Positions 3,447 to 3,606 of a DNA stretch of 4,217 nt are shown here, one piece after another. A program made the translations under genes and the position numbers. Numbering within the stretch: position 1 is the stretch's first letter; each line of letters begins with the position of its first letter. The DNA is from Escherichia coli (GTDB lineage: Bacteria; Pseudomonadota; Gammaproteobacteria; Enterobacterales; Enterobacteriaceae): NCBI RefSeq assembly GCF_003334255.1, contig NZ_QOWU01000109.1. One strand, given 5' to 3'. The notes under the pieces are model-generated. The model was not told the DNA's origin. It ran no database searches and saw nothing but the letters and a program-made list of their open reading frames with translations.

Positions 3447-3527
3447 CTTCTGAAGAACAGTAGCGTAGATTGAAACTGTCCTAAATCGCTTATTTCTTTT
3501 CAGTATATCTTCATATTTCAGGAGAAT

Positions 3528-3569
3528 ATGGTGCAGTTAGTCGATCTCGCACGTTGCGTTTCATTTTGA
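3528..3569 (+). other. Candidate mini-ORF (12-13 codons) in the dosC leader, preceded by a consensus Shine-Dalgarno
   Basis: AGGAG at 3520-3524 is followed by ATG at 3528 (3-nt spacing) and an in-frame GTG at 3531 (6-nt spacing). The ORF encodes [13 protein letters not shown] and stops at TGA 3567-3569, 37 nt upstream of the dosC ATG. I know of no annotated gene here; translation is unproven. Confidence 0.25.
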
Positions 3570-3606
3570 TTCCGTCTGATTTCCCAGCCTTATAAGGGTG
3601 TGAATT

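Follow-up and report, generated by a model that had tools for sequence, protein, structure and literature searches.

The window, that is, the whole 4,217-nt stretch of DNA analysed here, carries gadC, digH, and the 5' part of dosC. gadC and digH were identified from the open reading frame (ORF) listing and by comparison with annotated genomes, and dosC was identified from the annotations of MG1655 and strain 720632. The genes are arranged as follows:

258-1793: gadC
1924-3243: digH/yddW
363 nt between the end of digH and the dosC start at 3607: digH-dosC intergenic region
3607-4140, plus strand: dosC codons 1-178 (diguanylate cyclase DosC)

Positions 1-4140 were the same as in MG1655 except for two SNPs, both in gadC (positions 401 and 1211). 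Because only two SNPs were present in 4140 nt, the source of the window is a very close K-12 relative or derivative. IS1 terminal sequence occupies positions 4141-4217, inserted after dosC codon 178, and MG1655, which has no IS1 at 4141, reads on there as GAAGAAGAAAAAGAA. DosC is therefore disrupted in this window, and the insertion probably has a polar effect on dosP. The dosC-IS1 junction was recovered as a single aligned piece in only approximately 3 of 5426 complete E. coli genomes.

The original prediction placed a mini-ORF in the digH-dosC intergenic region, and its coordinates were all exact:

3520-3524, plus strand: AGGAG, Shine-Dalgarno (SD) sequence of the mini-ORF (yddY), read from the sequence
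3528-3569, plus strand: coding sequence of yddY (b4746), 13 codons plus TGA (ATG at 3528, TGA at 3567-3569), 100% identical to NC_000913.3 1567178..1567219(-)
3531-3533, plus strand: alternative in-frame GTG start of yddY
3570-3606: the 37 nt between the yddY stop and the dosC ATG (3607)

Its description as unannotated did not hold. The mini-ORF is yddY, which is already named, annotated, and experimentally detected. Window positions 3244-3640 matched NC_000913.3 at 100%, where yddY is annotated as b4746 (YP_009518783.1), and translation of 3528-3569 gave the 13-aa YddY sequence listed in Table 1 of PMC6001520. The ORF lies at the same locus as yddY of MG1655, at the same dosC-relative coordinates, and does not differ from it; the locus differs in that dosC is cut downstream by IS1 at 4141. 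yddY was absent from the PGAP annotations of the other E. coli strains inspected, which explains how the mini-ORF could pass for unannotated. The SD-to-start spacer is short for ATG (3 nt, AAT) and more usual for GTG (6 nt). AGGAG had been regarded as uncommon by chance; it occurs 3 times in the window, compared with 5.0 +/- 2.5 times in shuffled sequences. The motif alone is therefore insufficient to raise the mini-ORF above chance, and it is the conservation of the block spanning the SD and both starts (the SD-start block), together with published experiments, that does so.

Translation of the mini-ORF, as predicted, has been documented. VanOrsdel et al. (2018, Proteomics; PMC6001520) described YddY as a 13-aa protein flanked by dosC and yddW, and YddY was among the 36 small proteins detected there after chromosomal SPA tagging. 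Weaver et al. (2019; 10.1101/511675) placed it among the least abundant tagged small proteins. Vellappan et al. (2024/25; PMC11429745) included it among 17 low-Mg2+-induced small proteins from Ribo-RET initiation profiling and found that yddY promoter activity was PhoQ-dependent; in the membrane column of their summary table YddY is marked 'N', and neither deletion nor overexpression gave a phenotype. The SPA-tagged product and the low-Mg2+ Ribo-RET shortlist agree that the ORF is translated, and yddY is weakly translated in E. coli K-12. As stated, the finding of a translated mini-ORF adds nothing new, because yddY has been named and annotated and its translation has been shown since 2018.

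The leader in which yddY lies contains the following further features:

3440-3446, plus strand: CTATACT, putative sigma-S-type extended -10 element of the yddY-dosCP promoter, recognised by consensus
3457, plus strand: primary transcription start site (TSS) of the dosC(-dosP) unit (PMC6131387 supplementary file 4)
3594-3600, plus strand: AAGGGTG, probable dosC SD, read from the sequence

CTATACT was invariant in 7 of 7 aligned Escherichia sequences and lies 11 nt upstream of the mapped start at 3457. This start comes from SMRT-Cappable-seq (PMC6131387 supplementary file 4), in which the b1490 TSS at 1567290 on the reverse strand corresponds to window position 3457. Kim et al. (2012; PMC3415461 supplementary file 2) reported a dosC TSS with a 129-nt 5' UTR, which corresponds to window position 3478, from 2 reads, and the Cappable-seq 2016 supplements list no start site near the yddY-dosC locus. 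The TSSs at 3457 and 3478 are both downstream of CTATACT and both upstream of the yddY SD, and neither is downstream of 3528. The placement of the mini-ORF in the dosC leader was thus upheld, and yddY is an upstream ORF (uORF) inside the 5' leader of the dosC-dosP mRNA. The probable dosC SD was conserved as AAGGGG or AAGGGT across Escherichia. A promoter and terminator consensus scan of 3200-3700, which does not model sigma-S-type promoters, gave no match. Approximately 100 bp upstream of the promoter, AATTAACCACRC (3338-3349) is present in one copy in K-12 and in two tandem copies in the other nine E. coli alleles aligned, the difference being a 12-bp indel.

Two overlapping PhoP-box-like direct repeats (GGATTTATGGCTGTTTA and TTTTTATTAGGGATTTA, 2 mismatches each) were observed on the minus strand at 3355-3381. 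In the PhoP-box search, the best sites had 2-3 mismatches, were reversed in orientation, and preceded the -10 element by 60-85 bp. The sites at 3355-3381 could underlie the PhoQ-dependent activity of yddY. They were not conserved outside E. coli, and PhoP-box-like matches are common in this AT-rich window (21 found vs 11.7 expected). A possible indirect route to PhoQ dependence runs from PhoP through IraM to RpoS stabilisation and a sigma-S-type promoter.

A strong GC hairpin (3264-3296, AACAAGCCGGTG...CACCGGCTTGTT) without a T-run lies 3' of the digH stop. A digH-dosC read-through unit was reported by SMRT-Cappable-seq (PMC6131387), indicating that termination at this hairpin is incomplete. 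An Rfam search of 3200-3700 at a permissive E-value returned rli61 as the sole match (3254-3295; 22.7 bits against a gathering score of 50, E = 0.094). This match lies outside the mini-ORF and was read as a generic match to the digH terminator hairpin; no known Rfam cis-regulatory RNA reached its gathering score in 3200-3700.

Orthologues of DosC and their leaders were collected by a DosC-based scan of one genome per species. Full-length DosC orthologues were found in Escherichia, Citrobacter, Kluyvera, Phytobacter, Enterobacter, and Trabulsiella, and a homologous leader was present only in Escherichia. Four Escherichia lineages other than E. coli kept the SD and start with a mini-ORF of 2-3 codons:

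L013 (divergent Escherichia lineage): ATG GTG CCG TAA, encoding MVP
L014 (E. whittamii): ATG GTG CTG TAA, encoding MVL
L015 (E69 lineage): ATG GTG CGA TAA, encoding MVR
L021 (E. albertii): ATG ATG TAG, encoding MM, with TAA directly after TAG

Both in-frame starts and a nearby in-frame stop were present in all Escherichia lineages examined. At codon 4, L013, E. whittamii, and the E69 lineage have TAA and E. coli has TTA, so the 13-codon ORF is explained most parsimoniously by stop loss in the E. coli lineage; the ancestral Escherichia form would, most parsimoniously, have been a 2-3-codon mini-ORF. Minimal or 'start-stop' leader ORFs were reportedly found in E. coli by Meydan et al. in 2019 using retapamulin profiling. 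The SD and 2-3-codon ORF of E. albertii, E. whittamii, and the two divergent Escherichia lineages resemble them, and the E. albertii element has the start-stop form itself (AUG-UAG) if the second in-frame start is used. Unlike these ORFs, E. coli yddY has grown to at least 13 codons with a detectable tagged product.

Pairwise identities across five Escherichia lineages differed between the segments of the locus:

Promoter: 86.8%
5' leader: 88.1%
Leader segment 3486-3520 (arm A, see below): 87.1%
SD-start block, 3520-3533: 97.1%, with 13 of 14 positions invariant
ORF body, 3534-3569: 72.1%, the lowest value in the transcribed leader
Spacer: 84.5%
dosC start region: 98.1%

Among the non-coding parts of the leader, the SD-start block was kept best, and the adjoining ORF body, which encodes the peptide, was the worst kept. 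Between the yddY stop and the dosC AUG lay approximately 67 nt in other Escherichia, 37 nt in K-12, and 11 nt in an allele with a 5-bp deletion (see below), indicating that any coupling dependent on the termination site is not conserved. Conservation of the mini-ORF in relatives, on which the original prediction was to be judged, was therefore split: the SD and start were kept across Escherichia, whereas the ORF body, length, and stop position varied. What selection holds appears to be the translation start site, AGGAGAAUAUG(G/A)UG, and not the peptide. The conservation of the SD-start block across Escherichia, as opposed to the peptide, is a new observation of this analysis, as are the differing ORF lengths.

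Within E. coli, the digH-dosC intergenic region was matched in 5413 of 5426 complete genomes, and 5050 of the 5426 carried an exact copy of the 35-mer spanning the yddY SD and start (3508-3542). The 10 diverse alleles aligned agreed in the SD, in ATGGTG, and in yddY codons 1-11, and differed at the 3' end. Alleles were counted in the 5426 complete genomes using junction-centred 30-33-mers, for which an exact 28-mer match was required:

K-12 allele, 13 aa, TCA: 1127 genomes
Synonymous TCG allele, 13 aa: 1490 genomes
5-bp deletion allele, 20 aa: 1206 genomes (approximately 22%)
Rearranged allele, 57 codons, dosP kept, dosC mostly lost through a deletion with its left end inside yddY: 1044 genomes (approximately 19%)

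Loss of one CGTTT copy (5 bp) shifts the yddY frame to 20 codons, and in this allele the yddY stop TAA overlaps the dosC SD, 11 nt before the dosC ATG. In the dosC-deletion allele, the left breakpoint lies inside yddY (window position ~3558 onward; L011 3298-3471), and the 57-codon ORF runs from the yddY start through dosC remnants, with intact dosP just downstream. The yddY C-terminus is frameshifted or fused in approximately 41% of E. coli genomes. At 3557-3566, the window reads CGTTTCATTT and most strains read CGTTTCGTTT. DosC is described as often absent from E. coli (Povolotsky & Hengge 2016, as cited in PMC5635171), and a breakpoint inside yddY receives no mention in the literature consulted on DosC absence.

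These data bear on whether YddY acts in trans, as a small protein that takes part in the Mg2+/PhoQP or stationary-phase response, perhaps as a modulator of DosC/DosP or of some other protein in the manner of MgrB, MgtS, or AcrZ. Such a role is in keeping with the accumulation of the tagged product, the low-Mg2+ induction and PhoQ-dependent promoter activity, the identity of the first 11 codons in 10 of 10 aligned E. coli alleles, and the moderately hydrophobic character of the peptide (GRAVY 1.3). However, the peptide is confined to E. coli, the ORF having 2-3 codons in the other Escherichia lineages, and approximately 41% of E. coli genomes carry the altered C-terminus; moreover, a membrane helix would need more than 13 residues and a less polar composition than one containing D and R, and the published record contains a membrane score of 'N' and no deletion or overexpression phenotype. 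The variation in length and sequence makes a trans-acting peptide unlikely, and we consider this explanation improbable. A function for the very small hydrophobic peptide suggested originally is disfavoured by the same unconserved length and sequence, membrane score, and lack of a published phenotype. A conserved functional small protein was rejected as a class for yddY, with 2-3 codons in four Escherichia lineages, no counterpart in other genera, and 13, 20, or 57 codons in E. coli.

An ORF at this position could also act by leader-peptide attenuation or Rho-dependent premature termination, in which the progress of ribosomes on yddY would gate read-through into dosC, as in trpL, pheL, mgtL, or mdtU. 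The position of yddY in a 150-nt leader and the C-rich, G-poor stretch that follows it (3570-3590) would suit this mechanism, and mdtU/ydgV, which entered the record as a small protein before its role as a regulatory uORF was demonstrated, provides a precedent. Nevertheless, no terminator-like site (hairpin plus T-run) was found on either strand of 3200-3700, and hence none lies between the TSSs and dosC; the 13-aa YddY contains no run or repeat of regulatory codons, yddY-dosC is absent from the published Term-seq uORFs with a 3' end <=200 nt downstream, and the ORF body and stop position are not conserved. We therefore regard this mechanism as very improbable. Two narrower candidates were also set aside. 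An attenuation leader of the trpL/hisL/pheL type is unlikely in the absence of an intrinsic terminator in 3200-3700 and of a codon run for a sensed amino acid. A tightly coupled uORF, with its stop near the downstream SD or AUG, does not fit the 37 nt in K-12 and approximately 67 nt in other Escherichia, and only the 5-bp-deletion allele, at 11 nt, comes close.

Folding of the leader pointed to a different relationship between yddY and dosC, based on two predicted pairing arms:

3486-3520, plus strand: arm A, a pyrimidine-rich stretch of the leader whose last base is the first of the yddY SD
3601-3642, plus strand: arm B, the 6 nt before the dosC AUG and the first 12 dosC codons

The leader from 3453 to 3642 folded at -48.2 kcal/mol (z = -2.4), and the dominant feature was an interrupted 33-bp helix between arms A and B. 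By RNAduplex, the two arms paired at -28.5 kcal/mol, a value equalled in 0 of 2000 shuffles of either arm, and arm B was the best partner of arm A in the whole 4.2-kb window. The complementarity of the two arms is thus in statistical excess. An RNAalifold consensus of nine Escherichia leaders kept the predicted helix, and 97.3% of the helix cells were paired, compared with 45-55% when the partner was slid. Five one-sided, pair-preserving substitutions were present in the helix. Compensatory double changes were absent from the nine leaders, which can be explained by the sequences being too similar and arm B being coding. In E. albertii and the E69 lineage, the helix was weaker (-21.6 and -19.5 kcal/mol) and no better than shuffles, and in Citrobacter, Kluyvera, Phytobacter, Enterobacter, and Trabulsiella no equivalent helix or uORF above shuffles was found upstream of dosC.

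In the free K-12 leader ensemble, the probability that the dosC AUG is unpaired was 0.00. When 3513-3545 was held single-stranded, which mimics a ribosome at the yddY start, this probability rose to 0.48, a partial opening, whereas a mimicked ribosome at the K-12 yddY stop codon had no effect. The yddY SD itself was mostly paired in the ensemble, with a probability of being unpaired of only 0.10. The modelling suggests that the predicted helix buries the dosC start codon and that ribosome loading at yddY may act in cis. As a ribosome at the start opens the dosC AUG in the model and one at the stop does not, the result fits a role for initiation at yddY and not for how long the ORF is or what it encodes; such a role would explain why the start is conserved and the body is not.

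Taken with the comparative data, these results lead us to a reading in which yddY is the known uORF of the dosC-dosP leader, its start site rather than its peptide is under selection, and its role, if any, probably lies in cis; we put the chance that this reading is right at about even. According to such a mechanism, arm A (3486-3520) would pair with arm B (3601-3642) over 33 bp and hide the dosC start codon. A ribosome loading at the yddY start would occupy the 3' part of 3486-3520, so that translation of the leader ORF would help to open the dosC initiation region and might also keep the 150-nt leader covered. The ORF would have been lengthened to 13 codons in E. coli through the TAA-to-TTA change at codon 4. 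We infer from the modelling that the helix would form in cells, that initiation at yddY would open it, and that dosC output would change. The more specific proposal that the yddY start is a ribosome-operated switch set against the dosC-masking helix, with the 13-aa YddY as a recent by-product of stop loss, is tentative, and we would not expect it to prove correct in full. Counting against a cis role are the weak helix in E. albertii and E69, the lack of a helix or ORF in the five other genera, the lack of compensatory double changes in the helix, the merely partial opening of the dosC start in the model, the shifting position of the yddY stop, the mostly paired yddY SD, and the low abundance of YddY. 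The literature searched on the dosCP TSS, PhoP or leader control, uORFs, RNase III, and sRNA/Hfq contained no link between yddY or the leader and the control of dosC.

Neutral, noisy translation of yddY is a serious rival. By this account, translation of yddY is pervasive and functionless, and the SD-start block is conserved through the leader of a young genus or through RNA structure, the peptide and its translation being irrelevant. The very low protein level, the absence of a deletion or overexpression phenotype, and the free variation in ORF length (2-3, 13, 20, and 57 codons) are all to be expected in that case; AGGAG is not over-represented in the window, the adjoining leader segments are also 84-88% conserved, and the SD is predicted to be largely paired. 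It is harder to reconcile with an SD-start block (97%, 13 of 14 invariant) that stands clearly above the flanking leader and adjoins its least conserved segment, with the retention of both in-frame starts and a nearby stop in every Escherichia lineage examined, and with the place of yddY on the Ribo-RET low-Mg2+-induced shortlist. We consider functionless translation possible but doubtful.

Conservation of the SD-start block could have another cause, such as RNA structure or a binding site. CsrA recognises GGA motifs. The AGGAG/GGA block might accordingly be mainly a site for an RNA-binding regulator such as CsrA, or for a small RNA, with the ORF incidental. GGA occurs both at the yddY SD (3521-3523) and at the dosC start (AUGGAGAUG, 3609-3611), and PMC5574718 offers a precedent in which CsrA acts via a short uORF at iraD. 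However, the spacing of the two GGA motifs in sequence is 88 nt, and no link of dosC to CsrA or sRNAs was found in the literature searched, so that we give such a site very little weight.

The preferred reading, a start site acting in cis, has partial counterparts among known leaders. The mdtU (ydgV) uORF of mdtJI and the idlP uORF of iraD are, like yddY, short translated same-strand ORFs in a long 5' leader, and mdtU, too, first entered the catalogues as a 'small protein'. Conservation of the MdtU peptide extends over at least 17 genera and is strongest at the C-terminus, whereas the YddY peptide is not conserved even within Escherichia. mdtU and idlP regulate the downstream gene; for yddY, a cis effect on dosC is a candidate, no Rho or termination signal is reported, and the part of the leader immediately upstream of its SD is the predicted partner of the dosC start. 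A published title calls the iraD uORF translationally coupled, whereas in K-12 37 nt separate the yddY stop from the dosC AUG. In the rpoS leader (PMC2831331), a long interrupted inhibitory helix hides the start of a stationary-phase gene, as the predicted helix would at dosC. The rpoS opener is a small RNA (DsrA, RprA, or ArcZ) with Hfq, whereas the proposed opener at dosC is a leader-ORF ribosome, and the helix is a predicted one.

yddY is listed among the E. coli 'small proteins', and tests for trans phenotypes were negative; in the light of the comparative data, the more fitting question would be whether its start site acts in cis on dosCP. dosCP is one of the c-di-GMP modules affecting curli, PNAG, and RNA turnover. 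If true, the switch reading would tie the c-di-GMP output of the O2-sensing DosC/DosP pair to leader translation, and YddY would illustrate, with a date attached, how a regulatory mini-ORF can give rise to a small protein. The locus is a clean case of ORF growth, from 3 to 13, 20, and 57 codons, and it warns against taking the detection of a tagged product as proof of a functional protein.

One further allele was observed at the dosC start. In strain 130 (L010), 13 bp are missing at the equivalent of window positions ~3601-3615, including the annotated dosC ATG (ATTATGGAGATGT), and PGAP begins dosC of this strain at MKDEW, which corresponds to the ATG at window position 3628. This allele raises the question of which codon is the real DosC start. 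The same 13-bp loss also takes out part of arm B of the predicted helix.
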